From Cenococcum geophilum (taxonomy: Eukaryota): a DNA stretch of 64,000 nt. The stretch is from contig CP158635.1 in NCBI GenBank assembly GCA_050273025.1, positions 21,638,001 through 21,702,000 of the forward strand, given 5' to 3'. The notes beneath the pieces are model-generated. The model saw only the letters and a list, made by a program, of their open reading frames with translations, did not search any database and had not been told where the DNA came from. Positions 1,255 through 64,000 of this stretch are shown here, piece by piece; within the stretch, counting starts at the first letter, position 1, and each line of letters starts with the position of its first letter. The translations under genes were made by a program, and so were the position numbers.

Positions 1255-1442
1255 TTCCCCTTGCTAGCTAGCTAATAAAGAGCCTTTAGTGCGCTTAAGG
1301 GGATATTAATAGAAGTTTAAGTAGGAATAGAATTAAGGGTCGTGCGACAATAGGTTAATTAACGGGGCAAGTTGCCAGAGAAACTACGCGGCACAACTTA
1401 ATTCAATTAGATATTAGAATATAAGACTCGCTATAAAGCTAT

Positions 1443-4069: not shown

Positions 4070-4560
4070 TGCTTAAACTAAGGCTTCACAGGGCTTAGTT
4101 AAATACTAAGCCACAATAGGTAGGTAGCGTTTTCTGGTCTATAACTAGTTATACTTATCAGTTTTAGTTTATTCCGCGACGCGTAAGGCTCTAATACAGC
4201 GGAGCTCTTATATAGCGAGGCTGAAGAGGCGCCTAAGAACGCTAACGAACGATTACTAGTCCTAAAACAAGCTAAATCTAACATACTAAATACGAATATA
4301 GTTAACCTCTTTTTATAGCAGTTAATCGACCTATTTCCCGAAAACAGGTTCCAGTTTCTAAAACTGGATCTAGTATACGCGGACTCCCCCTCTGCTGGTA
4401 TATATTGTAAGGGAAACGCATTATTATTACTGTCTCCTTAGCAACGCCTTACTTATTTCCTTTAGAATATAACCCTCGCCAGTGTTTATTTTATATAGGT
4501 GACAAGCGTTTATCTCTATTTATTTGCACTAAATACAAAAATCCCCTGCGATATACCCCT
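4070..4560 (+). pseudogene. Possible short fragment resembling the C-terminal part of a second DUF3435-like protein
   Basis: Degenerate peptides FRDA.GS..AELL.SEAEEA.KNANER and PRQCLF(C)IGD(E)RLS resemble captain C-termini. Short and weak. Confidence 0.3.
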
Positions 4561-41595: not shown

Positions 41596-42457
41596 ATAAT
41601 AAAAAGTTTTCTTTAGATATTTTACTAGGTAACCCTAAAATACTAGGGATATAAAGTAATACTTAAGAATATGCTTTTTATAATAGATATTATAATTAAG
41701 CACCTTAATAAATCCTAGGTTAGTTTATCTCCCCTTTTTATTTCTTAATTTAGCTAATATTATATAATAGAAGGAGTATATATCTAATAAGGAGTTCTCT
41801 AAACGCATTAGAAATGCTTAGAATACCTTTAATAGATATTACTATAAAATAGATAACTCGCCCCTTTACACGCTGCACTTATTCTTTATCTAGCCCATTA
41901 TATAAGATATATTAAATAGGTTTAGAAGAAGGAGTAGCATAAGCCTGCACTTAATAGCATTAAAAAGCTTTAGGAAAGATATTAAAATAGGAATTCTATG
42001 CCTAGAAGTATATCGTTATATAAAAAGCTAGCTCTAACTTAAGACCTTAACGAGTTTAATAGAATTGCTAAGGATTTTAATAGTATAATATTTTAACTAA
42101 AAAGTTAAGATAAGTATAAGGACTTTATCTCTAAGACGCTATATAAGATTTTAATAACTATACTTTAGTAGTGGTCTTAAAAACAGCAATAAAAGCGCTA
42201 GCTATGGCTCTTACTTATAGCAATTAAAATTCTCTTAATTTTAGCAATAAGCAATAAGCTAGAAAGAGTCTTTTTAGGAGGACGTTGTATAGTATTATAG
42301 GAGAGAATATAGATAGATCCTAAAACTCTTAAGAAAATAAAGTGTTTAAAGAATTGGCATTAAAGAAGAACTATAAGAGAAATAGGTAATTTTTCTTTAA
42401 GTATTTAGCTATTATATAGTTAGGGGGGGAAGGTAGATACCTACTTATTCCTACTAT

Positions 42458-42495
42458 AATATCCGCAATATCTGCAATATCTGCAATATCTGCCA
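42458..42495. repeat. Subterminal 10-bp repeats (AATATCTGC-containing) of the hAT element
   Basis: ATATCCGCAATATCTGCAATATCTGCAATATCTGCC lies ~150 bp inside the TIR. Confidence 0.7.
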
Positions 42496-43522
42496 AATTC
42501 TGCCAGAACTGAGTCCTATTCTGCCTGGTTGGGGTAGAAAAGCTCCGCGCGGGCACTTTTATCCTTATCGATTGCGATATTTTATGCATTTTCTATTGGA
42601 TAAAGGATATTTTATGCTCGCTTATTTGCATTATCCAAAACAACCCTGGTCTAGGTTGATGGTAGTCCAGCATTTGCTATATGCGGTGGGAAGCGTGTAC
42701 AGGTATCAGCCACATCGGCTTCGGTATCTTATCTAGAAGGTAGTGTAAACGGCCCACTTCGCTATACTGGGTGAGGGGCAGTGGGGTATATGCGCACGCC
42801 TTCGGGTGGATGGGAGAATATGTGTAACTCCCAAGGCATTTTTACTACTTTATGAAGCAAATAGTGCTCCGGAGACTGTCATGAGGTTCCGTATGGGTTT
42901 ATGACGCATTGCTGTTAAAATAGCACTTGAATAAAAGGAAGCCAAATCAATCGATTTTGAGGTGTTGTGATAAGAACATAAGTGAAAATAAGAGTAGAAT
43001 ACTATTATGCCACGTATGATGAGGCTGTGCGGGACCGTCAGAGGGGCAAACTGATGGATCACCTGATGGACATGACTTTAAAGGGTCGTACGTAGGGGGC
43101 CATTTTTGGCTTAATCATAAAACAAGTGGTGATGTCGGAATGTTGGTGAGCCTTTGAATATGGATTTGCGGTTTGGGTACTGTACTGTAACTCGCTTCCA
43201 GATAAGAGCCTCCCACATCAGACGATCATTATACAAGTTGATAAATCTATTATGAAAGCAGCTTGTGATTGGTGATCGTCTGGGACTGAGATAACCCAGA
43301 GGGTCGTTTGTGCCGAAACCCAAGAATCTCCAAGCTAGTTGTGTTACATTCATAAGGTAACATCGCAGCCTCTTCCAAGCCTTGATGTCATTAGCTTACT
43401 AAAATTCAGGTATTAACTAGCATCCCTCGGCTAGACGCTCCGCCTATCGCTCCCTCTACCACACTCCTCGATATCGTTGTACGGCCTCCTCGATCCTCGT
43501 CCCCATCCCCAACGGCCTTACC

Positions 43523-43905
43523 TTACCCGCTAGCTGCCCACGTCACACCTCCCACAGCCTGACTATATCTTGGCATGGCGACGAGCGGGCTGAGGTTGAG
43601 CAGGTCAATCAAACGTGGTCTCGCCTTGCTCACTACATCAACAAGCGAGTGAAGAAAGTCTTCCCCAGCGATCTGGATCTCAGTGGCAAGACCCTGGACT
43701 TCTGAGGCACTAGGGATAGGCACTGGAGCCTAGCCGCAAGAGAGCAGCAACCGCAGCGCTGTCATAAAACCTTGGGTCGGCTTGAGTCTGTGCGCGAGAA
43801 TGAGGTAGTGGTAAGGGCCGTTGCTCAGAGCAAGCATATTATCCTCATGACTCAGATCCTCAAGGTCGAGATCCTCGAGCGGTAATTCAGCGTTGGAATG
43901 GAGAC
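43523..43905 (-). pseudogene. Possible gene fragment of unknown family
   Basis: ORFs 43730-44041 and 43523-43723 are in one frame separated by a single TAG. The peptide is protein-like, but no motif was recognised. Confidence 0.25.
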
Positions 43906-43911
43906 AGCGAT

Positions 43912-44440
43912 GTGGGGAGGCGCGGTCGCCCGCCAGCAAATGCGGCAAACTATCAGCCGCCGCTGAACGAGGTCCCTGAGATCCTGAAAGAGAACACCTT
44001 ACACTCTGGGATAGACGTAGCGAGCCGTATGAGCATCTCACGGGAGAAGGGGATCGCTAGCAACCTGGCATTTCTGTCAGCCACCTCAGACGATTGCCTG
44101 AAGGTGATGGCTGTGTGCGTTGAAGAATACCGCAACGGAGAAGGAACCACGATTCGGATAGCATTAAACACTGGATATCTCTCAGAAGTCAAAAACGGAT
44201 TCATGATGTTTGCTAAAGTCTTCTGACCCGTAGAGAATCCAAACCGGAGGACATAACGGTTCTTCTTCGACAGGTTGTAGTCCTAGACCTCTATCGAATT
44301 TTATCACAACTGCGATCACGACGTGCTAAGAGAACCAGAAAGGCTACTGAAAAACCACCGCTCATACTCAACTGAACGAAGTTGTTCACGACAAGTCCGT
44401 AAGGCCTATATCAGGGTTCACGGAAAGCAGCTGGCAGGCA
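43912..44440 (+). pseudogene. Truncated N-terminal fragment resembling fungal OTT_1508-like deaminase-family proteins
   Basis: SISREKGIASNLAFLSATSDDCLKVMAVCVEE..G.G.TIRIALNTG.L.EVK.GF, then a stop, then in another frame LLRQVVVLDLYRILSQLRSRRAKR. No catalytic C-terminus is visible. Confidence 0.5.
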
Positions 44441-45004
44441 CATCCCACCTCTATCTTTTCGCCTTCCTCTCCTTCATCCAGAAAGAGGTCGACGAAATCA
44501 TCCGCGACTACTGACTCCGGGGCGAGCGACTCATCACAATCCTTCACGCCGCCCATATGAGACGCAACGCGTCTTCAACTTCCTTCTCAGCGATGAGCGC
44601 TTCAAACCAAACCTATCCTTACTTGACGGCGAGCGCCTCCTCACAATCCTTCACGCCACGCATATGAAGTTCGCGCAATATTCGCTAGCAAGAGATATGA
44701 GGGATAGAATCTCAAGGGATAGGGAGCAGAAGGAGAAGCTGGTTGGAAAGAGGATAATTATATCGTTAAGCTCGCCATAGAGGTTGTTAGGCAGGAGAGG
44801 GGCAGTGGGGTGGTTGGGTTGCTGGCGTAGGAGCGAGCTGGCGTTGCACAGCCATACCAACTTTGAAATCATTGAAATGGTACGGAATGGACTGACTGCT
44901 CTACACACTGAGTTAAAGAATATCTCAAAATCTTAAACACGGTATAGCTCTCCAGGGACGTTTCTTTGGCAGGTTCAAGTTTATTAACGGGCAGGGGAAA
45001 GACT

Positions 45005-46321
45005 TTATCTCTCAATTCCCCAAGGTCGCTGTCCAGCAATTTCAACATCTCTTGTGCTCGTGTCCAAATCTATCGTCTCTCTATCAATCCTAACCTCATC
45101 GCTGGTCACTAAGTGTAGTTCCTTCTGTGTCACTCCGGCAGTAGACCTGTAACCTCGATCGGTAAGTTCGACAGCGCCATCTTGGCCACTGCGGGAAGAT
45201 GCTCGCTGGTAGCCATTTGCATTGGGGAGAGCATTATTGGTTTGGCCGGAGCTGCGTTCGGGGAGGGAAGCCATGAAGCTAGGGATGAGTTTTCGGATGA
45301 GAGGTTTAAGGGCGGGGACGGCCGCGCAAATCAGACCTATGTTGACCTCTACGGATGCCCAAATGTTGATGTCCCATGCAGCCCCTACAAAAACAGTCAG
45401 GAAAGAGTAGAATAGGGAGGCGGAGAGGTGGGATCTCACATGTTGGATCCCTACTCTTAATTGTCTGCCCAGTACGAATCGCCCGGACTAATGACGCTGT
45501 GATGGCCAGCCAACCTAGCGAGATGATTACATACAATGAGATCTTCTGTGCTCGAGCTATCCGCAGCGGGAAAATTCTCCAGAGAGCAAAACCCATTAAG
45601 AGTAAGTCCACAACAACGCTTAATGTGGCAGATCCGTAGACGAAGAAAGCAATATTCCTCGCGAAGGAGGGACCAGTACACCTACCCCCTTCTGGAGACC
45701 AGAATGCACCTCCGAGATCACAGGCAAAGAAGCCCTCGATGAACAGTACCACAGTAAAAACGGTCATGAAAGCCATCAGAACGACGGAGGAGATCTTACT
45801 TAATGAATCTTGGAATATCCGGCGGTAGAAGAGACAGATGGAGAGCTTCGTAGTTGTAAGGACAACTATATGAACAATTCGAACGCAAAACCCTAGGACC
45901 TGGATGATGTGCGCATTTGTGAACGGGACATACACGACATGCTGTCCAACTCCGTGTCTGGCAAGGGTACAGATGAGACCTGTCAGGAAGATCCCCAATG
46001 CCTTTAGATTATTAGTGCATTTTCCCATCCCTCTAGGAAGTACATCTCAAGCTTACTGCTGATATTGCCAGAAATGTGTCATCCCATCCCAGATTGCGGG
46101 TCAATGCAAGTCGTGTATACAGTCGACCAAGTATGATAGCAGTAGCACAGAATGTCGTAACAATTGTCCCAATCATCAGTCCTGTCGAGCGCGAATTCAC
46201 CTAAAAGTAAAAATAAGAATTGATCAATCTCTCTCGGAAGCACACATACCATTGAACCAAAGTTGCCTCCTCCAGGAGGCGGAGGCGGATGTGAAGGTGG
46301 AGGTGGTGGGGAAGTCGACAT
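45005..46321 (-). CDS. PTH11-like integral membrane protein (fungal rhodopsin domain, no CFEM), ~385 aa, 4 exons: 46321-46250, 46200-46057, 46001-45440, 45384-45005
   Basis: Three GT-AG introns (49, 55 and 55 nt) join an open frame with the family motifs GRLYTR...LGWDD, HGVGQH, KLSICLFYRRIF, D....P..I...QK..L, SLVR, DPTW, IWASVEVNIGLICAAVPALKPL. No RIP damage. Confidence 0.92.
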
Positions 46322-46654
46322 TTTTTCCTGTCCCACAACTTTTCATTTCTGTGGGCAGGGTTATCGGCATCGTATCGCTTGATCCCGTAGGTAGGGTAGA
46401 GGACGCGTCCTTACTTGTATGCGAAATGTTCTCAGATTCATGCGACGATTTCTGTTGGATGCACATGCGTCCCTTTTTGTGGCAGAACAGACTTTCGTAT
46501 TAGGGGCTTTGGGCACTCTTGCCTGGGTTAGCATACTGCAGGCACCCTAGCTAGCGTTGTTTTTTTTAGCAAGCCTCACCAGAACGCGTCAATATCACGA
46601 TGCTGATAAAATACTATAAAAGACCACCACTGAAAACACACACACATATATATA

Positions 46655-46870
46655 TATTAAGGAAGTTAGGCAAAAGGTTATAATATATAACGTTATAACT
46701 ATAAGTTTCTACTCTTCCTCTATTAATAGCCTCGGAGCCTCTAAGCTAAAGATATACAACGTTTTTCAGGCAGTAAAGAGACAATATTTTACTAATAATT
46801 AAATAACTAAATAGACAGCAATAATATTAAAGCTTTTTAATTAACTATGCTAGATATTATCGGCTTCCTA
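46655..46870. repeat. Small AT-rich RIP-like repeat relic next to a (CA)n(TA)n microsatellite
   Basis: Abrupt TpA-rich patch within otherwise balanced DNA; identity unknown. Confidence 0.35.
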
Positions 46871-49699
46871 GCTCTATTGCTGCTGTTTACCGTAATATCA
46901 AGCGTTAAAAACGTCAATAAGGCGCCGGCACCCTTACTGCCGAGCAACCACACTAACTGGAGGCTTCAACACCAAGCTCTATACGGTATAGAGCCTCTAG
47001 ATTGACTTATGAGGCGTGCATATACGAAAAGTCTTTGAAAATTTGCCACACAAAGGGATCCTTAGTGAAAATCAATCGGCCGCTTAATGTCCTAGACGAG
47101 CCGCAGTGAAACACCTGCAATTACAACTTGGGTGGCAGAAATAGTGCGTTGGTTTCCGGGCCACAAAGGCTGAGACAAAACGTGATTCATTCAGTATAAA
47201 AATCTTTATAGATACTAAAGGCCTAATATATCTTATTAATACTTTTCAAGTATGAGGTTTCTATCAAAATAACAATATAACTTCTGGAGACTTTTGGTGT
47301 GGTTTTTGCCCTGCGCACACTCTTATGGCCACACATTTATGATATCGGTGGGACAGTGGCTGGCTGAAAAAATATCGTATGATAAACTAGCAATAAACAG
47401 CGGTCTCCAAAAGCCACAAGACCCGAGAGTTTTAGGCTTACCCGACCGAAAAGTGCCGGTCTTTCACGAACTATAGCCACGTGCATGACCAGCTTCCACC
47501 CGCCTTTCCGCAGGTTCCGAATTCGGTACACATTCGGCTTCGCCTGGTTGCCACTAGCTGTATATAGCAATCGTAGCGAACGCCTATGCTTGGCTATAAG
47601 AACGCGATCGGTCTCTATAGTGCCGTGATCTTTATTAAATATCATGAGGTTTCTACCCATACAATATTGCTAAACTTCATCGTCCACTATAGAGAGACAG
47701 CGTTATATTCGCGTCTTAGCATAGTCATAAGGAAAAGAGGGAGAACGAGGAAGCATGCACCAGGCAAGTTCTAAATTACCTTAATTCAATTCCCCTAACC
47801 AACCAGAATAATTCTCCAAGGCAACCAAAATAGCCCGTGCATACAGCCATAAGCGTTCGCTACAATTACTATGTGCGATTGAGCAAGCCCGCGTGCCGTA
47901 GCGAAATAAACTTTTACTAGAGGAGGGGGGGTGGAAGCTGGTCATGCACATAGTAAAAAGCAAATATTCCTTACTTCTTCAATGGCAACTTTCCATGTCA
48001 GATTGTAACACAGGCAAGAAGCTCAGCCAGCTCACCGTAAAAATAAATGCTGGGTCGAAAGGGCCACGCGTTCAAACAACCAAAACCAGTCTCTTATCAT
48101 GTTGATATGCATTTCTTGAGGCGACGTCACTTGGCATGTCAAAGCCCAGTCAGTGAGCCAGCTAATGAATCCGGGGCCTCGGGGAACAGGGAACAATAAG
48201 CCATCTCCAAATCCGGGGCACCCGCCCGTACGTAAAAGTGGCTGAGACACCCTTAGCGCTGAGAATTTTCCAGTATGCATCGCTCTAACGGGACTGACTC
48301 GAGGACCACACAGTTCCATTCAGTGGCATCGACTGTTGCAACATTTCACAGTGATTTGAGGAAATTGGAAGGAATCATTTTTAGAGGGGGTTCAGATTGA
48401 GACTATGGATCCATTGATGCATCCAATTGCAACGACGTTTGTATCCCTTTATCTTATTCATCCAAGCTCGATGACAGTGCGAGGATTTAAAGAGTCGAAG
48501 AATAAATGATTTGTCATGAGTTGAAATGCAAGAGAACGTTTGTTCCTCGACAGTTGCGCATCTTTCTAAACTCGCGACTCGATGCAGACTATTTCCGAAA
48601 GCTTCCTTCAACATGAAATACACCCTCTCGTCAATTCCGGTGGTTAGCGTGTTTTATTAACTTTCCCTTAAACAGCAAAAATACCAAAACTTCCCCTAAC
48701 AAAAGGCCGTGCAGACGTGGCTGCGCTAACCACCGAAATTGATGAGAGGGTGTAGACGGATGCCCGGGAGGATCTAATGCCACGTGCTCTAGCTCCAGAA
48801 CGCCACTCAGCCACCGAAGACTGCTTACCCCGCTAGTGCTGACATTCCCTCGGCTTGTGCCTACGACATAGGCATTAGACCGCAAAACCACAGAGCACTT
48901 CTTAGCCATGAATCCTGAAATGTCTCGCTTGGTCGGTTGTCGATCGGAATATCAAAGAATGAGGACTTGTCTATTGAATGTGGCTCTAGGGCCTCTATAT
49001 ATACATAAGGAAGGTGTAGGCAATAGGAAGAAAAAGGGGGAGGGGTAGGTGACTGAGTCAAAGGGGTAGGTAACTGAGTCAGGGTGGTAAGACAAGGGCG
49101 GCAGACAAACGCCAACAATCATCACGGTCTTCCAAGCTATTTAGTCGGTTGCTGACATCAAATGGTGCAAATACAATGCATTGCAATGAGGGTTTTGCAC
49201 TGAGCTTCCAATGAATAGCGAGGTTGAGCGACACAGCTACCAAAGCAGACTCGCTCGTTCAATCTTCCATGAGAAACACTTCATTCTTTAGAGTATCTAA
49301 GCGAAATGCAAGAGCAGAAATTTCATTATTCTAACAGTTGTCGTCGAATTCGTTCAGCTTCCCTCAAATTAAGTCAGCCAACATGAGCAATCAGGTTCCA
49401 TTACAAGCAAGGCTCATGACCCAGACTGTCGTCGATAAAGTATCTTAATTACTACTATCCCATAATATACAAACTACTTTTCCGGTACATGAGTGGTACA
49501 ATGGCACATGCCCAGCTGTCACCAAGTCTGGATTGTCCCCCATCAAACTCGAGCCACTTTATCCTAAAATTTGCGAGTTTGGAATATCACCGCCGGAAGA
49601 AATGAATTTCGAGGAACCGTCACAACTGACCGAACCCACATTAATTGCCAGTGATGAACTTGAACCACTCCAACACACTCCCTTGGAGTTACCCAATGC

Positions 49700-50300
49700 T
49701 GCGATATGACTTATCCATGTTGAGCCAGATGTGTTTCTGGAGGATGCGGTTTCAATTGCCTTGTTCGAAGAACCACTCGATTCCGCACCTTCATATGCCG
49801 CACTCTCGTACAGTTGGGGCTCTCCGATTTCAGATCATGAGGTATCTACAATGGCCAGCGTCTCCGCATCACGAAACCCCCTCACCACGCTTTCAAAAGA
49901 CATCGACAACACAGATACGAGTATCTATAACTTGTGTGGGCTGATGCCATCTACATTAACCAATCTAACTGATCCGAAGTCACTCATAGGTAGGATCATT
50001 CCGAGGCTGACAGAGTGTATGTAGACCTTGGTGACACGAGTCTGACTCTTTCAAAGAGCCCGATTCGATGAGATCTTTGGGAATGGTAAGCCTCCATCTC
50101 GCCCCACTATTCGGCGGCAGTAGCCGCAGACTGTGAGCAATTCGAGTATCTATTCACATGTCACGCTGATTCACAAAAGCTATGCTCGACGAGACTACCA
50201 GTGAAAATCAAAACATGCTGATGGGCCTACCATAGGGTTATGTCAGCAAATTCTATGAGACTGCCGAGGTCCGATTGCTGGAGAACTATGGGTTGGTGAA
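49700..50300 (+). pseudogene. HET-domain (heterokaryon incompatibility) gene remnant
   Basis: I*LIHVEP...AVSIALFEEPLDSAPSYAALSYSWGSP matches the IRLL..L.P...Y.ALSY.WG lead-in of HET domains. It has an in-frame TGA and lacks a downstream W.DA.CI.Q core. Confidence 0.55.
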
Positions 50301-50816
50301 TCTTCACTGTATGATGAGTGTTCACATGGCTACGTTTTGGTTCATGAAGCAGAAGAATTCGTCGCAACAGGGATTAAAAGTGGCCTTGTGTCACACGAAG
50401 GGTAAACTTACATATTCCTATAAGACAAAGAATTAGTACATATGGATGAGGTGTAGTGTTGCAGGAGTCTTCAATAGTTGATCGCAAAGAGTAATACGAA
50501 GGGTAGATGCAGGAACAATTACTTGTCGTTAGAGGGAGTTTCTGAGCGGGTGTATGATATCCGATTTAGGGCACGTTCGATAACTATCACATATCGGGGG
50601 GGGTCATTTGGCGCGGTTACGACCCGGGTTAATACGAGGTTAGGGCCACCCCTGCTGATAACGCGCCCGAACCCCGCACGAGGTCGCGCAGCGACCGCCC
50701 CCGAGTACCTTCGCACGCGATTTTGGGCGAAAAGGTATATAATATGTGTTGGATCGGTACCTCTGGACGGTCGCGTAATGTTGCTCTGAATTTACAACAC
50801 CTAAACGCGTTCCATT

Positions 50817-51139
50817 CCTATATTAAGGCGTCTCAGTTACTGTAATGCAGTCCTATATTAAGACGTCTCGGTTGCTATAGTATAGTCCTATATTAAGGCG
50901 TCTCAGTTAATACAGTGCAGTCCTATATTAAGGCGTTTTGGTTACTATAGTGCAGTTATATATTAAGGCGTTTCGGTTACTGCAGTGCAGTCCTATATTG
51001 AGACGTCTTGGTCACTAGTAGTCCTATATCGAGACGTCTTGGTTACTATAGTGCAGTCATACGTTAAGGCGTCTTAGTCACTATAATGCAGTCATATATA
51101 GAGGCAGTTATATATTAAGGTGTCTTAGTTACTGCAGTA
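50817..51139. repeat. 35-bp tandem repeat (~9 copies, CCTATATTAAGGCGTCTCAGTTACTGTAATGCAGT-like) just downstream of the Crypton stop codon, present in every unit
   Basis: CCTATATT at 50817, 50852 and onward; same block at +3555, +7110 and +10665. Confidence 0.9.
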
Positions 51140-51149
51140 AAATAACTAT

Positions 51150-53731
51150 TTAGATATTCTTATAAAGCTAATCTAAAGAACGCGGACCTTATAGCTGTTC
51201 TAGCTGGTTAACAGCCTATCTCTTATCTCTTGCCGTACCGTCTTCTACGCGCTATCTAACATCCTTAATTATCCTACGGCGACGGCTGTAGAATATAGCC
51301 TTACCGTTAACCCGCCAGCGCGCCCCCCAGCAGCAATTAAGAGCTTTAATTAACGGCCCACCTGCTAGCCCTAAAGTCCACTTAGTCCAGAGCTGGAACA
51401 CCAAATTACCGCCCCAAAGTATCTTATATTTTCTTAGCAGTGCCTATGGGTTAAGAATAAATGGAAGAGGTTGAGCGTTAGCCTGCGGCAGCTGCGGTAG
51501 CTGCGGCGGGGGTATAGTAGAAGCTTGCGGCAGCTGCTATAGGGGTATAGTAGACGTTATGGTAGACAGCTGAGTAGGCTCTACGGCGGTAGACAGTTAA
51601 GGACCCCTTAGTATCTCTATAGGGGTTAAATATATAAGAGAGGGTTTATCCAAAGACGGAATCTAGCTATTAACGCGTTTAGGAACGGACGCGGGTACGG
51701 GCATAAGTACGGGTATAGGCATAGGTATAGATGCGGGCATAGGTACGGGTATAGGGCCGTCCAAAGACGGACGTATGGACTCCATAGGCCCTATCTAAAT
51801 ACCCATCTTCCCTTGCTAAATCTATATAGGTGCGAATAATGCTAATAACCTTTCTATCTCGCCAAGGCGTTCTAAAATCGTCTGCATGCGTAATTAAACC
51901 CCCTTTATCTCTAAGATCGCGGCCTTATATCTTAGCTTAGCTATGGCCTTATAGGCGGGCCAGTATTTCCGCATTATTATCTCATCTGGCGTAACTACGC
52001 TAGCTAGCGAGCTTTCTACCCGCGTGGTAAACCTTTAGTACTCCTTATAGCTAAAAAGGGGATTCTTCTATAGAGGGTAGAGCGGGAACTGCTTGCGTAG
52101 GATTACTAAGTCCTGCAATAGGATTACCCTAAGCGCGCGGAGGAGGCGTAGAAATCCTAAGCCTGTAAGGTTAAGCCGTACGACCTTATTATCTGCCCTC
52201 TCTAGGTAGTAGGTCTCTATACATTTTAGCCAGACGTCAGTCTTAGGCCATATCTTTAAACAGAGTACCTCCTCCGGCACCTCCCGTGCGCGGGAAAGAA
52301 AGTAGCCCTTTCCTTCCTTTAGGAAGCCAGCGATTAACCGTATAAACGCACGGGGTAGATAGCTAAGGTAGGCTCCTGTTATCGCGTCCGTATTCCAGTA
52401 TCCGGCCCATCTAATTTAGGTCTCCTTAACGCCGCTAAGCTTAGCGTGCCGGACGCTCTACTTATAGGCGCTATAGGTCTTCTCTTTTAAATAAATCCCT
52501 ACCCCCTAGAATATCTTTTTATTCTATTTAAACTGCGTATAATAGCTTAACGGCCGTTGCGGTACTTTAATACTGCCAGAAAAGACGTATAGGCCGTAGT
52601 AGTCCTCTAGCTACCGAAAGGATGGGAAGCTCTTAGCGCCGTCCTTACCCTAGCGGTTAAAGAAGTAAAAGGCTATTATAGAGAGAGGGCAGAGGATAGG
52701 GTCAGTATTACGCATACAGCCCATATACTCAACCTTGCCGTACTAATTCTGCTTCCCCTATATTATTAATATAATTATATACGGCGCTAACTTATCTAGT
52801 TTTAGCCCTTTGTTCTCTAGTTTAATAAGGATAAGGTTAGCAAGCTAAATGTCCCATCTACTTTTACCCTAAGTAATAGTAGTATGGCCTAAGGAACGGG
52901 TTAGAAAACGGCAGCCGTATAGACTAAATAGGGTATATATAAACCTAATAAATACTCAGCTGTAGTTTAAAGGTAAAACTTAATTAAGCCTAGCTTCTTA
53001 GAGCCCGTCTCCTAGCACTAAGTAATTGCCTTTTTAAGCCCTTTAACGTCGTAACTACTAGTAATTATAAATAGGCCTTAATTAATAAAGTTAACGCGTT
53101 AAATCCGGTCCTTATTACGGCGGACGCTATCTAATACCACCAAGAGCTTTACCCCCCGCAGTGGCTGCGAGGTTTTACCTTCCGACTACTATATATAGAG
53201 CTTAGTAATAGCGGAGACGTAGCTATTTATAACTAAGTATCGGACTATCTCGTTAAATAGGGCGTCTAGGGCCTCCTCGTCCTATATCTCTTCCTCCTTT
53301 ATAGCTTCCTCCCCTACAGCTGCGGCTGCCCCTACGGCTGCCTTTCCCCCTAGCGGCCCTCCTACGGTCGTCTTCTGCCTCTTCTTCACCCGCTTACTAT
53401 CTTTCTATATCTCTTTCCGTTTTAACTTCTGTTTTTAATAGCCAGCGGCCCGCAATTCTTAATTAATAACTTACTGCTCTAAAAATAAGTAAAGCTTATC
53501 TTCCGTTACCTAGGCGCCATCCGTATTGCCTTCTAGTCTTACGTACTAGTCTTCCCACTCTTTCTACTTTAGCTTATACGCCCTTATAGTATTCTTTAAG
53601 CGCTAGGCCTTATAAATATCCTACAGCCGTGCTATCTGGGCCTTAAATTCGTTCTAAAGGCTATAGGGGAAGGAGGCTAGGGGGGCTTCCGTAGTGGACC
53701 GTAGGGTAAGAAGATTCTTAAGAGACTCCAT
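51150..53731 (-). pseudogene. Crypton tyrosine recombinase (NDC10-II-like) with C-terminal GCR1_C domain, RIP-degenerated; copies at 54705-57286, 58260-60841 and 61815->64000
   Basis: The A/B consensus gives R.KNT.RAY.PKQKEWEDW..RL.GNTDGARVTEDKLCLFL, SYVSAIT.LY.WQ, GKQN.HGKVEYMGCMR..DPILCPLS..AFYFFNR, EKTHSARKQS.RHA, IRRAGRWNTDA.TGAYLSYLPRAF.R.IAGF, LRVILLQD.VI, and LWT.WTLGLAGGP.I.AL.RCWGARWR...FYSRRRRII. Confidence 0.9.
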
Positions 53732-54138
53732 ATCTGTAAGAGGTAAGGGGGCAAACGCGTAAGCGCGGTATGGGTAAATAAAGCTACCGAACGCGTAAAT
53801 ATTAATAAAGAAGGAGAAGAAGAGGGCTCTATATTATAGAATTAGAATTATAGTAGGCCTTTCTATATAAAATTAGAAGCCCCGCGCGAGCTAGGAGCTA
53901 GCGCGGGCATAAGAACAGCAGAGGGTTGGAAAATGGGATTGTTGAGGCAATGGTAAGGTTAATGGCGCGCGACGAGGACCTCCATACTAACCCAGTACTA
54001 ACCTAGGCCTCAAAAACGCGTCCGAAAAGTAGGGGCCACCACTAAAGGGGGGGGGTAATATTTAAACGATATGTCGAAGACCTTAGGGGGTCGTGCGTAA
54101 CCTAAGGTTATGCTAAGCTTAACCCGGACCTCCGATAC

Positions 54139-57100
54139 CTATTATATATCGGGGGGGGTCATTTAGCGCGGTTACAACCCGGGTTAATACGAGGTTAGGG
54201 CCACCCCTACTAATAACGCGCCTGAACCCTATACGAGGTCGCGTAGCGACCGCCCCCAAGTACCTTCGTACGCGATTTTAGGCGAAAAGGTATATAATAT
54301 GTATTAGATCGGTACCTCTAGACGGTCGCATAATATTGCTCTAAATTTATAACACCTAAACGCGTTCCATTCCTATATTAAGGCGTCTCAGTTACTATAA
54401 TATAGTCCTATATTAAGACGTCTTAGTTGCTATAGTATAGTCCTATATTAAGGCGTCTTAGTTAATATAGTGTAGTCCTATATTAAGGCGTTTTAGTTAC
54501 TATAGTACAGTTATATATTAAGGCGTCTTGGTCACTACAGTGCAGTCCTATATTAAGACGTCTTGGTCACTAGTAGTCCTATATTAAGACGTCTTGGTTA
54601 CTGTAGTGCAGTCATACATTAAGGCGTCTTAGTTACTATAGTGTAGTTATATATAGAGGCAGTTATATATTAAGGTGTCTTAGTTACTACAGTAAAATAA
54701 CTATTTAGATATTCTTATAAAGCCAATCTAAAAAACGCGGACCTCGTAGCTGTTCTAGCTAGTTAATAGCCTGTCTCTCGTCTTTTACCATACCGTCTTC
54801 TACGCGCCGTCTAACATCCTTAATTATTCTACGGCGACGGCTGTAGAATATAGCCTCGCCGTTAACCCGCCAGCGCGCCCCCTAGCAGCGATTAAGAGCT
54901 TTAATTAACGGCCTACCTGCTAGCCCTAAAGTCTACTTAGTCTAGAGCTAGAACACCAAATTACCGCCCTAAAGTATCTTATATTTCCTTAGTAGTGCCT
55001 ACAGGTTAAGAATAAATAGAAGAGGTTAAGCGTTAGCCTGTGGTAGCTGCGGCAGCTATAGCGGGGGTATAGTAGAAGCTTGCGGCAGCTGCTATAGGGG
55101 TATAGTAGACGTTATAGTAGACAGCTAAGTAGGCTCTACGGCGGTAGACAGTTAAGGACCCCTTAGTATCTCTATAGGGGTTGGATATATAGGAAAGGGT
55201 TTATCTAAAGACGGAATCTGGCTATTAACGCGTTTAGGAACGGATGCGGGTATAAGTATAGGTACGGGTGTAGGTATAGGTATGGGTGTGGGCATAGGTA
55301 CGGGTATAGAGCCGTCTAAAGACGGATATATGGACTCCGTAGGCCCTATCTAGATACCTATCTTCCCTTGCTAGATCTATATAGGTGCGAATAATGCTAA
55401 TAACCTTTCTATCTCGCTAAGGCGTTCTAAGATCGTCTATACGCGTAATTAAACCCCCTTTATCTCTAAGATTGCGGCCTCGTATTTTAGCTTAGCTACG
55501 GCCTTATAGGCGGGCTAGTATTTCCGCATTATTATCTCGTCCGGCGTAACTACGCTAGCTAGCGAGCTTTCTACCTACGTGGTAAACCTCTAGTACTCCT
55601 TATAGCCAAAGAGGGGGTCCTTTTATAGAGGGTGGAGCGGGAATTACTTGCGTAGGATTACTAAGTCCTATAATAGGATTACCCTAAGCGCGTGGAGGAG
55701 GCGTAGAAATCCTAAGCCCGTAAGGTTAAGCCATACAACCTTATTATCTACCCTCTTTAGATAATAGGTCTCTATACGTTTTAGCTAAACATTAGTCTTA
55801 GGCTATATCTTTAAACAGAGTACTTTCTCCGGCACCTCCCGTACGCGGGAAAAAAAGTAGCCCTTTCCTTTCTTTAGGAAGCTGGCGATTAACCACATAA
55901 ACGCATGGGGTAGATAGCTGAGGTAGGCTCCTATTATCGCGTCCGTATTCCAGCATCCGGCCCGTCTAATTTAGGTCTCCTTAACGCTGCTAAGCTTAGT
56001 ATACTAGACGCTCTGCTTACGGGCGCTATAGGTCTTCTCTTTTAAATAAATCCCTACCCCCTAGAATATCTTTTTATTCCATTTAAACTGCGTATAATAG
56101 CTTAACGGCCGTTACGGTACTTTAATACTGCTAGGGAAGATATATAGGCCGTAATAGTCCTCTAGCTGCCAAAAGAATGGGAAGCTCTTAGCGCCGTCCT
56201 TACCCTAGCGGTTAAAGAAGTAGAAGGCTATTATAGAGAGAGGGTAGAGGATAGGGTTAGTATTACGCATATAGCCCATATACTTAACCTTACCGTGCTA
56301 ATTCTACTTCCCCTATATTATTAACATAATTATATACGGCGCTAACTTATCTAGTTTTAGCCCTTCGTTCTCTAGTTTAATAAGGATAAGGTTAGCAAGC
56401 TAAACGTCCCGTCTACTTTTACCCTAGGTAACGGTAGTATAGTCTAAGGAACGGGTTAGAAAACGGTAGCTATATGGACTAGATAGGGTATATATAAACC
56501 TAATAAATGCTTAGCTATAGTTTAAAGGTAAGACTTAATTAAGCCTAGCTTCTTAGAGCCCGTCTCCTAGCACTAAGTAATTGCCTTTTTAAGCCCTTTA
56601 ATATCGTAACCACCAGTAATTATAAATAGGCCTCAATTAATAAAGTTAACGCGTCAAATTCGGTCCTTGTTGCGGCGGATGCTGTCTAGTACCACCGAGA
56701 GCTTTACCCCCCGTAGCGGCTGCGAGGTCTTACCTTCTAACTGCCATACATAGAGCTTAGTAATAGCGGAGATGTAGCTATTTATAACTAAGTATTGGAC
56801 TGTCTCGTTAAATAGGGCGTCTAGGGCCTCCTCGTCCCATATCTCTTCCTCCTTTATAGCTTCCTCCCCTATAGCTGCGGCTGCCCCTGCGGCTGCCTTT
56901 CCCCCTAGCGGCCCTCCTGCGGTTATCTTCTGCCTCTTCTTTACCCGCTTGCCATCTTTCCATATCTCTTTCTATTTTAACTTCCGTTTTTAATAGCCAG
57001 CGGCCCGCGATTCTTAATTAATAACTTACTGCTCTAAAAATAAGCAAAGCTTATCTTCCGTTACCCGGGCGCCGTCCGTATTGCCTTCTAGTCTCGCGTA

Positions 57101-57693
57101 CCAGTCTTCCCACTCTTTCTGCTTTGGCTTGTACGCCCTTATAGTATTCTTCGAGCGCTAGGCCTTATAAATATCCTACAGCCGTGCTATCTGGGCCTTA
57201 AATTTATTCTGGAGGCTATAGGGGAAGGAGGCTAGGGGGGCTTCCGTAGTAGACCGTAGGGTAAGAAGATTCTTAAGAGACTCTATATCCGCAAGAGGTA
57301 AGGGGGCAAACGCGTAAGCGCGGCATGGGTAAATAAAGCTACCGAACGCGTAAATATTAATAAAGAAGGAGAAGAAGAGGGCTCTATATTATAGAATTAG
57401 AATTATAGCAGGCCTTTCTATATAAAATTAGAAGCCCCGCGCGAGCTAGGAGCCAGCGCGGGCACAAGAACAGCAGAGGGTTAGAAAATGGGATTGTCGA
57501 GGCGACGGTGAGGTCAATGGCGCGCGACGAGGACCTCTATACTAACCCAGTACTAACCTAGGCCTCAAAAACGCGTCCGAAAAGTAGGGGCCACCACCAA
57601 AGGGGGGGGGTGATATTTGAACGATATGTTGAAGACCTTGGGGGGTCGTGCGTAACCCGAGGTTATGCCAAGCTTAACCCGGACCTCCGATAC
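54139..57693 (-). mobile_element. Crypton unit 2, variant B
   Basis: Collinear with unit 1 at +3555; the differences seen are C>T/G>A transitions. Confidence 0.9.
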
Positions 57694-57707
57694 CTATCAC
57701 ATATCGG
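57687..57707. other. Candidate recombination core at the unit junction: CCGATA-CCTATCACA-TATCGG
   Basis: Perfect 6-bp inverted arms around a 9-bp spacer. RIP-altered copies at 54132-54152 and 61242-61262; host-flank version TCGATA-ACTATCACA-TATCGG at 50577-50597. Confidence 0.7.
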
Positions 57708-60700
57708 GGGGGGTCATTTGGCGCGGTTACGACCCGGGTTAATACGAGGTTAGGGCCACCCCTGCTGATAACGCGCCCGAACCCCGCACGAGGTCGCGCA
57801 GCGACCGCCCCCGAGTACCTTCGCACGCGATTTTGGGCGAAAAGGTATATAATATGTGTTGGATCGGTACCTCTGGACGGTCGCGTAATGTTGCTCTGAA
57901 TTTACAACACCTAAACGCGTTCCATTCCTATATTAAGGCGTCTCAGTTACTGTAATGCAGTCCTATATTAAGACGTCTCGGTTGCTATAGTATAGTCCTA
58001 TATTAAGGCGTCTCAGTTAATACAGTGCAGTCCTATATTAAGGCGTTTTGGTTACTATAGTGCAGTTATATATTAAGGCGTTTCGGTTACTGCAGTGCAG
58101 TCCTATATTGAGACGTCTTGGTCACTAGTAGTCCTATATCGAGACGTCTTGGTTACTATAGTGCAGTCATACGTTAAGGCGTCTTAGTCACTATAATGCA
58201 GTCATATATAGAGGCAGTTATATATTAAGGTGTCTTAGTTACTGCAGTAAAATAACTATTTAGATATTCTTATAAAGCTAATCTAAAGAACGCGGACCTT
58301 ATAGCTGTTCTAGCTGGTTAACAGCCTATCTCTTATCTCTTGCCGTACCGTCTTCTACGCGCTATCTAACATCCTTAATTATCCTACGGCGACGGCTGTA
58401 GAATATAGCCTTACCGTTAACCCGCCAGCGCGCCCCCCAGCAGCAATTAAGAGCTTTAATTAACGGCCCACCTGCTAGCCCTAAAGTCCACTTAGTCCAG
58501 AGCTGGAACACCAAATTACCGCCCCAAAGTATCTTATATTTTCTTAGCAGTGCCTATGGGTTAAGAATAAATGGAAGAGGTTGAGCGTTAGCCTGCGGCA
58601 GCTGCGGTAGCTGCGGCGGGGGTATAGTAGAAGCTTGCGGCAGCTGCTATAGGGGTATAGTAGACGTTATGGTAGACAGCTGAGTAGGCTCTACGGCGGT
58701 AGACAGTTAAGGACCCCTTAGTATCTCTATAGGGGTTAAATATATAAGAGAGGGTTTATCCAAAGACGGAATCTAGCTATTAACGCGTTTAGGAACGGAC
58801 GCGGGTACGGGCATAAGTACGGGTATAGGCATAGGTATAGATGCGGGCATAGGTACGGGTATAGGGCCGTCCAAAGACGGACGTATGGACTCCATAGGCC
58901 CTATCTAAATACCCATCTTCCCTTGCTAAATCTATATAGGTGCGAATAATGCTAATAACCTTTCTATCTCGCCAAGGCGTTCTAAAATCGTCTGCATGCG
59001 TAATTAAACCCCCTTTATCTCTAAGATCGCGGCCTTATATCTTAGCTTAGCTATGGCCTTATAGGCGGGCCAGTATTTCCGCATTATTATCTCATCTGGC
59101 GTAACTACGCTAGCTAGCGAGCTTTCTACCCGCGTGGTAAACCTTTAGTACTCCTTATAGCTAAAAAGGGGATTCTTCTATAGAGGGTAGAGCGGGAACT
59201 GCTTGCGTAGGATTACTAAGTCCTGCAATAGGATTACCCTAAGCGCGCGGAGGAGGCGTAGAAATCCTAAGCCTGTAAGGTTAAGCCGTACGACCTTATT
59301 ATCTGCCCTCTCTAGGTAGTAGGTCTCTATACATTTTAGCCAGACGTCAGTCTTAGGCCATATCTTTAAACAGAGTACCTCCTCCGGCACCTCCCGTGCG
59401 CGGGAAAGAAAGTAGCCCTTTCCTTCCTTTAGGAAGCCAGCGATTAACCGTATAAACGCACGGGGTAGATAGCTAAGGTAGGCTCCTGTTATCGCGTCCG
59501 TATTCCAGTATCCGGCCCATCTAATTTAGGTCTCCTTAACGCCGCTAAGCTTAGCGTGCCGGACGCTCTACTTATAGGCGCTATAGGTCTTCTCTTTTAA
59601 ATAAATCCCTACCCCCTAGAATATCTTTTTATTCTATTTAAACTGCGTATAATAGCTTAACGGCCGTTGCGGTACTTTAATACTGCCAGAAAAGACGTAT
59701 AGGCCGTAGTAGTCCTCTAGCTACCGAAAGGATGGGAAGCTCTTAGCGCCGTCCTTACCCTAGCGGTTAAAGAAGTAAAAGGCTATTATAGAGAGAGGGC
59801 AGAGGATAGGGTCAGTATTACGCATACAGCCCATATACTCAACCTTGCCGTACTAATTCTGCTTCCCCTATATTATTAATATAATTATATACGGCGCTAA
59901 CTTATCTAGTTTTAGCCCTTTGTTCTCTAGTTTAATAAGGATAAGGTTAGCAAGCTAAATGTCCCATCTACTTTTACCCTAAGTAATAGTAGTATGGCCT
60001 AAGGAACGGGTTAGAAAACGGCAGCCGTATAGACTAAATAGGGTATATATAAACCTAATAAATACTCAGCTGTAGTTTAAAGGTAAAACTTAATTAAGCC
60101 TAGCTTCTTAGAGCCCGTCTCCTAGCACTAAGTAATTGCCTTTTTAAGCCCTTTAACGTCGTAACTACTAGTAATTATAAATAGGCCTTAATTAATAAAG
60201 TTAACGCGTTAAATCCGGTCCTTATTACGGCGGACGCTATCTAATACCACCAAGAGCTTTACCCCCCGCAGTGGCTGCGAGGTTTTACCTTCCGACTACT
60301 ATATATAGAGCTTAGTAATAGCGGAGACGTAGCTATTTATAACTAAGTATCGGACTATCTCGTTAAATAGGGCGTCTAGGGCCTCCTCGTCCTATATCTC
60401 TTCCTCCTTTATAGCTTCCTCCCCTACAGCTGCGGCTGCCCCTACGGCTGCCTTTCCCCCTAGCGGCCCTCCTACGGTCGTCTTCTGCCTCTTCTTCACC
60501 CGCTTACTATCTTTCTATATCTCTTTCCGTTTTAACTTCTGTTTTTAATAGCCAGCGGCCCGCAATTCTTAATTAATAACTTACTGCTCTAAAAATAAGT
60601 AAAGCTTATCTTCCGTTACCTAGGCGCCATCCGTATTGCCTTCTAGTCTTACGTACTAGTCTTCCCACTCTTTCTACTTTAGCTTATACGCCCTTATAGT

Positions 60701-61248
60701 ATTCTTTAAGCGCTAGGCCTTATAAATATCCTACAGCCGTGCTATCTGGGCCTTAAATTCGTTCTAAAGGCTATAGGGGAAGGAGGCTAGGGGGGCTTCC
60801 GTAGTGGACCGTAGGGTAAGAAGATTCTTAAGAGACTCCATATCTGTAAGAGGTAAGGGGGCAAACGCGTAAGCGCGGTATGGGTAAATAAAGCTACCGA
60901 ACGCGTAAATATTAATAAAGAAGGAGAAGAAGAGGGCTCTATATTATAGAATTAGAATTATAGTAGGCCTTTCTATATAAAATTAGAAGCCCCGCGCGAG
61001 CTAGGAGCTAGCGCGGGCATAAGAACAGCAGAGGGTTGGAAAATGGGATTGTTGAGGCAATGGTAAGGTTAATGGCGCGCGACGAGGACCTCCATACTAA
61101 CCCAGTACTAACCTAGGCCTCAAAAACGCGTCCGAAAAGTAGGGGCCACCACTAAAGGGGGGGGGTAATATTTAAACGATATGTCGAAGACCTTAGGGGG
61201 TCGTGCGTAACCTAAGGTTATGCTAAGCTTAACCCGGACCTCCGATAC
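57694..61248 (-). mobile_element. Crypton unit 3, variant A (appears identical to unit 1)
   Basis: Offset of 7110 from unit 1; identical 70-aa ORFs at 52068 and 59178. Confidence 0.9.
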
Positions 61249-64000
61249 CTATTATATATCGGGGGGGGTCATTTAGCGCGGTTACAACCCGGGTTAATAC
61301 GAGGTTAGGGCCACCCCTACTAATAACGCGCCTGAACCCTATACGAGGTCGCGTAGCGACCGCCCCCAAGTACCTTCGTACGCGATTTTAGGCGAAAAGG
61401 TATATAATATGTATTAGATCGGTACCTCTAGACGGTCGCATAATATTGCTCTAAATTTATAACACCTAAACGCGTTCCATTCCTATATTAAGGCGTCTCA
61501 GTTACTATAATATAGTCCTATATTAAGACGTCTTAGTTGCTATAGTATAGTCCTATATTAAGGCGTCTTAGTTAATATAGTGTAGTCCTATATTAAGGCG
61601 TTTTAGTTACTATAGTACAGTTATATATTAAGGCGTCTTGGTCACTACAGTGCAGTCCTATATTAAGACGTCTTGGTCACTAGTAGTCCTATATTAAGAC
61701 GTCTTGGTTACTGTAGTGCAGTCATACATTAAGGCGTCTTAGTTACTATAGTGTAGTTATATATAGAGGCAGTTATATATTAAGGTGTCTTAGTTACTAC
61801 AGTAAAATAACTATTTAGATATTCTTATAAAGCCAATCTAAAAAACGCGGACCTCGTAGCTGTTCTAGCTAGTTAATAGCCTGTCTCTCGTCTTTTACCA
61901 TACCGTCTTCTACGCGCCGTCTAACATCCTTAATTATTCTACGGCGACGGCTGTAGAATATAGCCTCGCCGTTAACCCGCCAGCGCGCCCCCTAGCAGCG
62001 ATTAAGAGCTTTAATTAACGGCCTACCTGCTAGCCCTAAAGTCTACTTAGTCTAGAGCTAGAACACCAAATTACCGCCCTAAAGTATCTTATATTTCCTT
62101 AGTAGTGCCTACAGGTTAAGAATAAATAGAAGAGGTTAAGCGTTAGCCTGTGGTAGCTGCGGCAGCTATAGCGGGGGTATAGTAGAAGCTTGCGGCAGCT
62201 GCTATAGGGGTATAGTAGACGTTATAGTAGACAGCTAAGTAGGCTCTACGGCGGTAGACAGTTAAGGACCCCTTAGTATCTCTATAGGGGTTGGATATAT
62301 AGGAAAGGGTTTATCTAAAGACGGAATCTGGCTATTAACGCGTTTAGGAACGGATGCGGGTATAAGTATAGGTACGGGTGTAGGTATAGGTATGGGTGTG
62401 GGCATAGGTACGGGTATAGAGCCGTCTAAAGACGGATATATGGACTCCGTAGGCCCTATCTAGATACCTATCTTCCCTTGCTAGATCTATATAGGTGCGA
62501 ATAATGCTAATAACCTTTCTATCTCGCTAAGGCGTTCTAAGATCGTCTATACGCGTAATTAAACCCCCTTTATCTCTAAGATTGCGGCCTCGTATTTTAG
62601 CTTAGCTACGGCCTTATAGGCGGGCTAGTATTTCCGCATTATTATCTCGTCCGGCGTAACTACGCTAGCTAGCGAGCTTTCTACCTACGTGGTAAACCTC
62701 TAGTACTCCTTATAGCCAAAGAGGGGGTCCTTTTATAGAGGGTGGAGCGGGAATTACTTGCGTAGGATTACTAAGTCCTATAATAGGATTACCCTAAGCG
62801 CGTGGAGGAGGCGTAGAAATCCTAAGCCCGTAAGGTTAAGCCATACAACCTTATTATCTACCCTCTTTAGATAATAGGTCTCTATACGTTTTAGCTAAAC
62901 ATTAGTCTTAGGCTATATCTTTAAACAGAGTACTTTCTCCGGCACCTCCCGTACGCGGGAAAAAAAGTAGCCCTTTCCTTTCTTTAGGAAGCTGGCGATT
63001 AACCACATAAACGCATGGGGTAGATAGCTGAGGTAGGCTCCTATTATCGCGTCCGTATTCCAGCATCCGGCCCGTCTAATTTAGGTCTCCTTAACGCTGC
63101 TAAGCTTAGTATACTAGACGCTCTGCTTACGGGCGCTATAGGTCTTCTCTTTTAAATAAATCCCTACCCCCTAGAATATCTTTTTATTCCATTTAAACTG
63201 CGTATAATAGCTTAACGGCCGTTACGGTACTTTAATACTGCTAGGGAAGATATATAGGCCGTAATAGTCCTCTAGCTGCCAAAAGAATGGGAAGCTCTTA
63301 GCGCCGTCCTTACCCTAGCGGTTAAAGAAGTAGAAGGCTATTATAGAGAGAGGGTAGAGGATAGGGTTAGTATTACGCATATAGCCCATATACTTAACCT
63401 TACCGTGCTAATTCTACTTCCCCTATATTATTAACATAATTATATACGGCGCTAACTTATCTAGTTTTAGCCCTTCGTTCTCTAGTTTAATAAGGATAAG
63501 GTTAGCAAGCTAAACGTCCCGTCTACTTTTACCCTAGGTAACGGTAGTATAGTCTAAGGAACGGGTTAGAAAACGGTAGCTATATGGACTAGATAGGGTA
63601 TATATAAACCTAATAAATGCTTAGCTATAGTTTAAAGGTAAGACTTAATTAAGCCTAGCTTCTTAGAGCCCGTCTCCTAGCACTAAGTAATTGCCTTTTT
63701 AAGCCCTTTAATATCGTAACCACCAGTAATTATAAATAGGCCTCAATTAATAAAGTTAACGCGTCAAATTCGGTCCTTGTTGCGGCGGATGCTGTCTAGT
63801 ACCACCGAGAGCTTTACCCCCCGTAGCGGCTGCGAGGTCTTACCTTCTAACTGCCATACATAGAGCTTAGTAATAGCGGAGATGTAGCTATTTATAACTA
63901 AGTATTGGACTGTCTCGTTAAATAGGGCGTCTAGGGCCTCCTCGTCCCATATCTCTTCCTCCTTTATAGCTTCCTCCCCTATAGCTGCGGCTGCCCCTGC
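61249..64000 (-). mobile_element. Crypton unit 4, variant B (appears identical to unit 2), cut by the window edge
   Basis: Offset of 7110 from unit 2, with the same diagnostic substitutions. Confidence 0.9.

Follow-up and report, generated by a model that had tools for sequence, protein, structure and literature searches.

How could two transposon copies that have both been inactivated by repeat-induced point mutation (RIP) be duplicated once more as a single block, with the new joint falling exactly on the ends of the element? The question is raised by a stretch of 64,000 nucleotides from the fungus Cenococcum geophilum (contig CP158635.1 of assembly GCA_050273025.1, positions 21,638,001 to 21,702,000), hereafter called the window, to which all coordinates refer. 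Self-comparison of the window reveals a head-to-tail array of 3,555-bp units, read here as decayed copies of a CryptonF-type element, which begins exactly at 50584 and reaches the end of the window. Two kinds of unit, A and B, follow each other in the order A-B-A-B, giving a higher-order period of 7,110 bp. A1 (50584..54138), the first unit, is a 3,555-bp decayed CryptonF copy whose gene lies on the minus strand, and the second, B1 (54139..57693, minus strand), is 92.0% identical to A1, from which it differs by 285 transitions only. The third, A2 (57694..61248, minus strand), is the same as A1 at all 3,555 positions, and the fourth, B2 (61249..64000, minus strand), is ended by the window edge at unit position 2752 and equals B1 over that length. 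Identity is about 92% at an offset of 3555, and at both this offset and 7110 the final mismatch falls at 50583; across the longer period, 50584-56890 and 57694-64000 do not differ at any of 6,307 bp. BLAST extends the block match by 6 nt into the flank, which lowers the figure to 99.984% over 6,313 bp, and blastn finds no further copy of the unit in window positions 1-50583. An earlier note on this DNA had proposed the 3555-bp period and the identity of units 1 and 3 and of units 2 and 4; alignment of the four units bears out both. The strings that it quoted are also in place: at unit position 2, TATCACA in A1 and A2 and TATTATA in B1 and B2, and at unit position 3358, GTCGAGG... in B and GTTGAGG... 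in A1 and A2.

The divergence between A and B carries the mark of RIP. Among the 3,555 sites compared between A1 and B1, the 285 differences include no transversion and no indel; they comprise 86 C>T, 75 G>A, 69 A>G and 55 T>C changes, and the mutated C stands in a CpA context in 143 cases, in CpG in 98, in CpT in 27 and in CpC in 17. The TpA/ApT ratio reaches 1.84 in A and 1.90 in B vs 0.89 in the flank at 42000-50583, and the (CpA+TpG)/(ApC+GpT) ratio falls to 0.54 and 0.46 vs 1.2 in the same flank. This is the footprint of RIP, with transitions only, a dinucleotide bias and indices shifted relative to the adjacent DNA, so that the note's description of the differences as RIP-type holds for all 285 of them.

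The distribution of these mutations along the dimer is equally telling. Private mutations of A are absent from its first 388 nt and rise toward its end, and those of B drop from its start to its end. Counted per 711-bp bin along A-B, they number 12, 24, 21, 33 and 34 in A and 48, 37, 43, 26 and 7 in B (Mann-Whitney p = 1.4e-10), which agrees with the earlier view that the start of A and the end of B are the least mutated parts. The same trend, peaking at the joint, is seen in two tandems from the metagenome loci described below, L044 and units 1 and 2 of L023. Such a profile would fit RIP acting on a two-unit duplication with less exposed outer edges. Sparing of the outer edges of the dimer would in turn explain why the right half of the A/B joint is mutated while the start of A and the end of B keep the consensus. 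A RIP round after the second duplication would have made the start of A2 and the end of B1 internal and the two blocks unequal; since the blocks are equal, no such round appears to have taken place since, and the note's proposal that the block was copied after the last RIP round agrees with the lack of any difference between the A-B blocks.

Some of the RIP-type changes are common to both units. A and B share 331 RIP-type sites vs about 220 shared with unrelated copies, a difference that is partly due to subfamily divergence. Whether the monomer had died before it dimerised was considered and set aside, because stops gather at hot spots that are saturated: all 26 stops common to A and B are found in unrelated copies as well, and 36-39 of the stops of A recur in unrelated copies with heavy RIP. 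In an alignment of 16 copies, every copy has its stops at the same hot-spot codons, which are saturated, and it is transversions that divide the family into subfamilies. A and B cluster with the L023 units, from which they differ by 12-14 transversions, vs 40-63 to most other copies compared, among those listed.

The coding content identifies the 3,555-bp unit as a decayed DNA transposon of the CryptonF type. When stops are read as X, one minus-strand frame of each unit matches NDC10_II (PF16787; E 6.8e-34 for A, 2.8e-26 for B) and, downstream of it in the same frame, GCR1_C (PF12550; E 2.5e-9 for A, 6.9e-8 for B). In Pfam, NDC10_II is the Crypton-derived domain of Ndc10/Cbf2 and models the tyrosine-recombinase domain. 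A tyrosine recombinase followed by GCR1_C is the CryptonF architecture given in the passages on these elements by Kojima and Jurka (2011; PMC3212892), and the earlier identification of the unit as a Crypton is upheld by the presence of both domains in one frame. A search of a protein collection returned an intact relative, P0001, of 778 aa (NDC10_II 6e-56, GCR1_C 1.8e-17), to which the gene of A1 was aligned by tblastn. Part 1, which corresponds to P0001 residues 1-259 and contains 18 stops, occupies 52943..53731 (unit 2360-3148, minus strand); part 2, in another frame, corresponds to residues 258-778 and occupies 51153..52892 (unit 570-2309, minus strand), and it is part 2 that holds both NDC10_II (52038-52895) and GCR1_C (51195-51401), likewise on the minus strand. 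The two parts are separated by about 50 nt, which is probably a small intron, since P0001 lacks these ~50 nt and another relative, P0002, has 17 extra residues at this point. The contigs of the P0001 and P0002 clusters are about one unit long (1.2-4.3 kb), and the pattern resembles spliced vs unspliced transcripts; if the difference between the two proteins is one of splicing, the Crypton family is expressed somewhere.

Neither A nor B can supply a recombinase, given the 42 stops in the recombinase frames of A, the 46 in those of B and an altered H-x-x-R box, which reads TYSAYK in A and TYSARK in B vs THSARK in P0001. The catalytic residues of these recombinases are R-H-R-Y, according to the corresponding passages of PMC3212892. 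The boxes were placed by eye, as ...THSARK...RAGRW...GAYLSY... in P0001, and GAYLSY is kept in both A and B. The cluster that includes P0001 has 14 members, each of which lies on a contig of 1.2-4.3 kb, and the intact relatives measure 775-778 aa. A differs from P0001 at 305 residues, of which 180 are explicable by RIP-type changes alone, whereas the control directions explain 21 and 30. P0001 accordingly ranks as a relative at most ~83% identical to the pre-RIP sequence and not as the master copy. Named distant relatives are fungal (Coccidioides, Elaphomyces and Tilletia), with 32-34% identity, and among solved structures no sequence match to P0001 was found at E 0.01 or better. One further relative, P0041, which is 69% identical to P0001, carries the source label of an Acidobacteriaceae metagenome-assembled genome and is probably a fungal contig binned with bacteria.

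The ends of the element can be defined from its relatives elsewhere. A RIP-tolerant pattern built from unit positions 21-60 retrieved 45 metagenome stretches, i.e., 44 distinct loci, as L044 and L045 are one contig; the same left-end pattern had no match in the prokaryote genome collection. A core consensus was then drawn from 42 left and 9 right flanks, with unit ends and inverted left ends left out. At positions -4 to -1, the left flanks read A (36/42), T (36/42), A (38/42) and Y (36/42), followed by the element's CTAT, and after the element's ...GATAC the right flanks begin with C (9/9) and T (9/9). The element is thus bounded by a 6-bp terminal direct repeat, ATAYCT; its termini otherwise have no long repeats in either orientation and carry only short sub-terminal inverted motifs of 7-9 nt. 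A short terminal direct repeat is presented as a standard Crypton feature in passages of PMC3212892 and PMC8969392. In the window, the left edge carries ATAACT and all internal joints carry ATACCT, so the ~7 bp that the earlier note took to be shared by the outer ends has to be replaced by this 6-bp core.

The three kinds of joint differ in their state of preservation. The flank/A1 joint reads TTCGATAA/CTATCACA, and its core (50580..50585, plus strand) is made of the target ATAA and the element's first CT. The A/B joint reads CCGATAC/CTATTATA; the inner A1/B1 core is ATACCT (54135..54140, plus strand), and its right half-site (CTATTATA) is RIP-mutated. The B/A joint reads CCGATAC/CTATCACA, and the B1/A2 core, ATACCT (57690..57695, plus strand), is consensus-like on both sides, in keeping with the earlier remark that the A/B joint is mutated and the B/A joint is not. 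The intact-joint sequence is CCTCCGATACCTATCACATATCGG. Across the B1/A2 joint lies an inverted repeat, CCTCCGATA / TATCGGGGG, with 9 nt between its arms (57684..57710, no strand assigned), and a second inverted pair, TTAACCCGG / CCGGGTTAA, occupies 57674-57682 and 57734-57742. Inverted motifs that straddle a joint in this manner correspond to the general layout of a tyrosine-recombinase site, in which the CCTCCGATA / TATCGGGGG arms are a candidate recombinase-binding arm pair.

Exact tandem joints are a habit of the family. Six of the 44 loci (L005, L023 with two joints, L027, L028, L039 and L044) contain unit-end/unit-start joints with one shared core, which account for 6 of 15 right ends and 6 of 53 left ends. 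As with A and B, the units of these tandems have diverged by RIP. Units 1 and 2 of L023 differ by 300 transitions and 2 transversions, and the L044 tandem by 323 transitions and 8 transversions. In L044 (1-7113), a RIPped dimer is nested in another family copy, 37 nt before the end of that copy, at the site GTAAC/CTAAGG, and the 37-nt tail follows; this site is a look-alike of the ATAC/CT core. The single core at many flanks, the exact tandems and the nesting in L044 lend indirect support to circle excision and site-specific integration as the way in which the family may move.

What, then, produced the second A-B block? The last B-specific base lies at 57669 and the first A-specific base at 57698, so that the switch from B to A is confined to 29 nt, and these hold the ATACCT core. 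With the switch so limited and A2 equal to A1 throughout, ordinary unequal crossing-over is a poor fit, as the earlier note had argued. It must nevertheless be weighed, since tandem arrays do form higher-order repeats by such exchanges: a longer RIPped array (A-B-X...) could acquire a 7,110-bp higher-order repeat by homologous unequal crossing-over or by gene conversion over long tracts, and the array extends past the window. However, unequal crossover predicts a hybrid unit, and A2 equals A1 over 3,555 nt while B1 is of the B type to 25 nt from its end. The exchange would have to fall in the 29-nt interval, i.e., 0.8% of the unit, abutting the point where homology to the left of A1 stops. Among the units in the window, neither hybrid units nor exchange points spread within units were found (A2 = A1, B2 = B1), and of all the explanations considered here we regard this one as the most improbable.

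A real duplication that needed no recombinase could also have come about through microhomology, by template switch or end joining at the ATAACT and ATACCT cores. The outer cores share 5 of 6 bases, and a switch in the shared CT yields the observed joint. Yet a 10-kb region offers many alternatives of equal length, so that a hit on both element ends exactly would be unlikely (on our estimate, of the order of 1e-5), and the identical exact joint recurs at 6 independent tandem joints elsewhere, which points to a site-specific process. We consider a microhomology origin very unlikely.

From the sequence pattern, the family core, the tandem habit and the position of the B-to-A switch, all of which can be read directly, we infer an order of events, an enzyme and its supply in trans. 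The family would insert through recombination at the 6-bp core ATAYCT, and it often forms exact head-to-tail concatemers, adjacent units sharing one ATACCT core. RIP would treat a two-unit concatemer as a duplication, with C-to-T and G-to-A changes densest at the inner joint and sparsest at the outer ends, and would thereby kill both genes and alter the inner recombination site while the outer sites are spared. The entire A-B block of 7,110 bp would have been duplicated at a later time, after which no further round of RIP took place, the new joint falling exactly at the core. As both units are dead, the enzyme must have come from another copy, and the most economical route would be an intact family member that supplies recombinase in trans, acting on the two outer sites. 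Two routes may be envisaged: an unequal sister-chromatid exchange between the right end of one block and the left end of the other, or circular excision of A-B, after which the circle is re-inserted at an outer site or integrates by homologous recombination. Under this best reading, the B1/A2 joint at 57690..57695 would be the product of the second duplication, and we give even chances to the explanation as a whole, namely that the family recombinase, working in trans on spared outer sites, duplicated as a single block a dimer already killed by RIP. Of the earlier proposal of a site-specific recombinase acting in trans, the site-specific part is backed by the exact joints at 6 of 15 right ends and by the ATAYCT repeat, and the role of the recombinase itself is what we infer. 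A further step would be to view A-B as a new composite, non-autonomous element of 7.1 kb, created by RIP and moved or amplified as a single unit by the recombinase of a live member. This we hold as tentative, and would sooner doubt than assert; if true, it would be natural evidence for the trans mobilisation of dead Cryptons.

The gravest concern for duplication by a recombinase in trans is the assembly itself. One A-B dimer, or some other arrangement, could have been turned into A-B-A-B by a false cycle, in which a consensus-like B end is threaded to an A start from other tandem copies, and such an artefact would likewise give perfectly identical blocks. Public sequence runs, available as short Logan contigs, bear on this point. 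Part of the stretch is present in 20 of the 24 runs listed; of its sampled words, 66-69% are found in four runs from one sample, and 24-44% in root metagenomes and in runs that carry a second organism label. Contigs of four runs, X1, X2, X5 and X6, were placed on a repeat-free stretch of one unit across the B/A joint, which received 3,687, 3,395, 2,357 and 2,433 contigs, respectively. In X1, summed depth rises to ~56,000 (~43,000 in the bin of the joint) vs ~150 for exact-match contigs. Exact-match depth in X1 is 142-179 for A-specific contigs and 149-155 for B-specific contigs, and X2 is similar; this equal depth of A and B fits an A:B ratio of 1:1, which counts in favour of a duplicated A-B block.

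Several of these results, together with others from the metagenome loci, weigh against a dimer duplicated by a recombinase. The Crypton family is very abundant and highly variable in these samples, and this abundance makes an error of assembly more likely. It often shows exact tandem joints, and 31-mers from the start of A have exact matches in 10-16 of the 44 metagenome loci, so that a graph assembler could thread a false cycle; 31-mers from the end of B have them in 1-3. The depth of ~150 is compatible with a single A-B block as well as with two or more. Among the contigs listed, none bridges 57693/57694 with at least 31 nt on each side, which neither confirms nor refutes the joint. The A-B-A-B copy number is that given by this one assembly, and the right end of the array lies beyond the window. 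L023 has at least three units, all different, in the order A-B-C, with no A-B-A. No blocks repeated at 98% identity or more were found within the 44 loci, though short-read assemblies collapse such repeats. As for a source of the enzyme, none of the open reading frames of at least 250 aa in the 44 loci matches the Crypton frame, which leaves no intact subfamily copy there, and the nearest intact protein does not exceed ~83% identity to the pre-RIP sequence. The intact Crypton gene for which the earlier note had advised a search is thus represented by the relatives of 775-778 aa in the protein collection and by no member of this subfamily in the 44 loci.

Other observations speak against an artefact. 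None of the 44 metagenome loci contains the 31-mers that span the joint (57666-57693). The A- and B-specific sites on either side of the joint are 29 nt apart, so that words of at least 31 letters, or single reads, tie them together. Moreover, the 64-kb window passes without an N through 42 kb of RIPped repeats, which may point to a well-resolved assembly. We judge an assembly artefact rather unlikely, yet a serious contender. Were only one dimer to exist, the locus would amount to an unremarkable tandem of RIPped Cryptons whose target site is well defined.

One feature of the same contigs is of separate interest. Contigs of X1, X2 and X6 match the unit from position 85 (57778) on and carry other sequence before it (...CTAATAATTGGCG). 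The X1, X2 and X6 samples thus contain a variant of the element, or a relative of it, whose left end is different.

How does this family compare with known systems? It is like the CryptonF elements of fungi and oomycetes, as treated in passages of PMC3212892, in having one protein with a tyrosine recombinase followed by GCR1_C, no long terminal repeats, and a 6-bp terminal direct repeat that is the presumed substrate of crossover. Passages of PMC8969392 describe Cryptons as generally low-copy, in contrast to the very high copy number seen here. Also unlike described CryptonF elements are the frequent exact head-to-tail concatemers and the re-duplicated dead dimer; no description of tandem or head-to-tail Crypton arrays, or of a re-duplicated dead dimer, was found in the literature searched. 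The closest functional parallel lies in the passages of Lopez-Cortegano et al. (2023; PMC9977147) on CryptonF-1_cRei, which is active in Chlamydomonas reinhardtii and inserts where the target CAYCG matches the terminal motif CACCG. It gains copies even though clean excisions occur, and rearrangements between element ends and target-like sites are attributed there to the recombinase. In both systems, the target matches the terminus, with a 5-bp motif there and the ATAYCT core here; the events in Chlamydomonas were seen directly in mutation-accumulation lines, whereas the present case is one of static sequence. The passages on CryptonF-1_cRei report neither tandem concatemers nor the movement of dead copies, and they present Chlamydomonas as the only instance in which Crypton transposition has been observed directly, all other cases being deduced.

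A different parallel is provided by bacteria. In bacterial integrative elements and prophages with tyrosine recombinases, a circle joins a resident copy, or outer att-type sites recombine, and exact arrays with one core per joint result; in such integrative systems, the trans-mobilisation of defective copies has been shown experimentally. Unlike these, the present element is fungal and sits in a context of RIP and eukaryotic chromatin. RIP in Neurospora converts C:G to T:A only and prefers CpA; linked duplications are among its targets, and the DNA beside them is hardly affected. Its action on tandem duplications has reportedly been studied by Watters et al. in 1999 and by Gladyshev and Kleckner in 2014. 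The changes recorded here are likewise confined to C:G to T:A and CpA-biased, with the adjacent flank nearly untouched, but unlike in Neurospora, CpG is hit almost as often as CpA (98 vs 143 of 285). The centre-peaked profile along the dimer was measured here and is not taken from the Neurospora papers, and the literature searched yielded no usable account of edge effects in RIP.

At the level of the family, the defined ATAYCT core and the clear tendency to form exact tandems are new. The family constitutes a natural record of the reaction, with the ATAYCT core at dozens of independent insertions, exact concatemers and a look-alike insertion within a copy, to which a correct assembly would add a dead dimer whose second copying fell exactly on its outer sites. 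If this is true, Cryptons would have non-autonomous passengers and could seed tandem arrays after their death by RIP, and recombinase activity would be dated after the last RIP-competent sexual cycle of the fungus. It would also follow that exchange at element ends by a tyrosine recombinase, rather than homologous crossover, can start higher-order transposon arrays, even with RIP active.

Further features of the family concern its left end. Head-to-head left ends were seen in L005 (~5852-5858, with ATAT alone between them), L001 (~10040-10150) and L012 (~4246-4304), and may reflect recombination at a partly palindromic core. Free ends number 42 left vs 9 right, and only the first 150-500 nt of the element are present in L004, L007, L015, L017, L018, L020, L029, L034, L035, L041 and others; the excess of left ends may represent a shorter non-autonomous family or deletion derivatives with the same left terminus. 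Every unit also carries 8.2 copies of a 35-bp tandem repeat, placed between the left terminus and the 3′ end of the gene, at 50816..51099 (plus strand) in A1 and then at 54371-54654, 57926-58209 and 61481-61764. These repeats could be accessory sites for the GCR1_C domain.

To the left of the array, positions 1-42000 of the window form a 42-kb AT-rich block with a guanine-cytosine (GC) content of 31-36% and RIP indices of 1.62 and 0.51, in which blastn detects no copy of this Crypton. GC climbs to 43-50% from ~42 kb. A HET-type gene, which at first impression seemed to adjoin the element, was dropped, as Pfam finds nothing in 49000-50583. The non-RIPped DNA that lies 4.5 kb left of the array holds a gene for a membrane protein with a Fung_rhodopsin domain (45005-46046, minus strand; E 1.2e-29), present as two open reading frame pieces.

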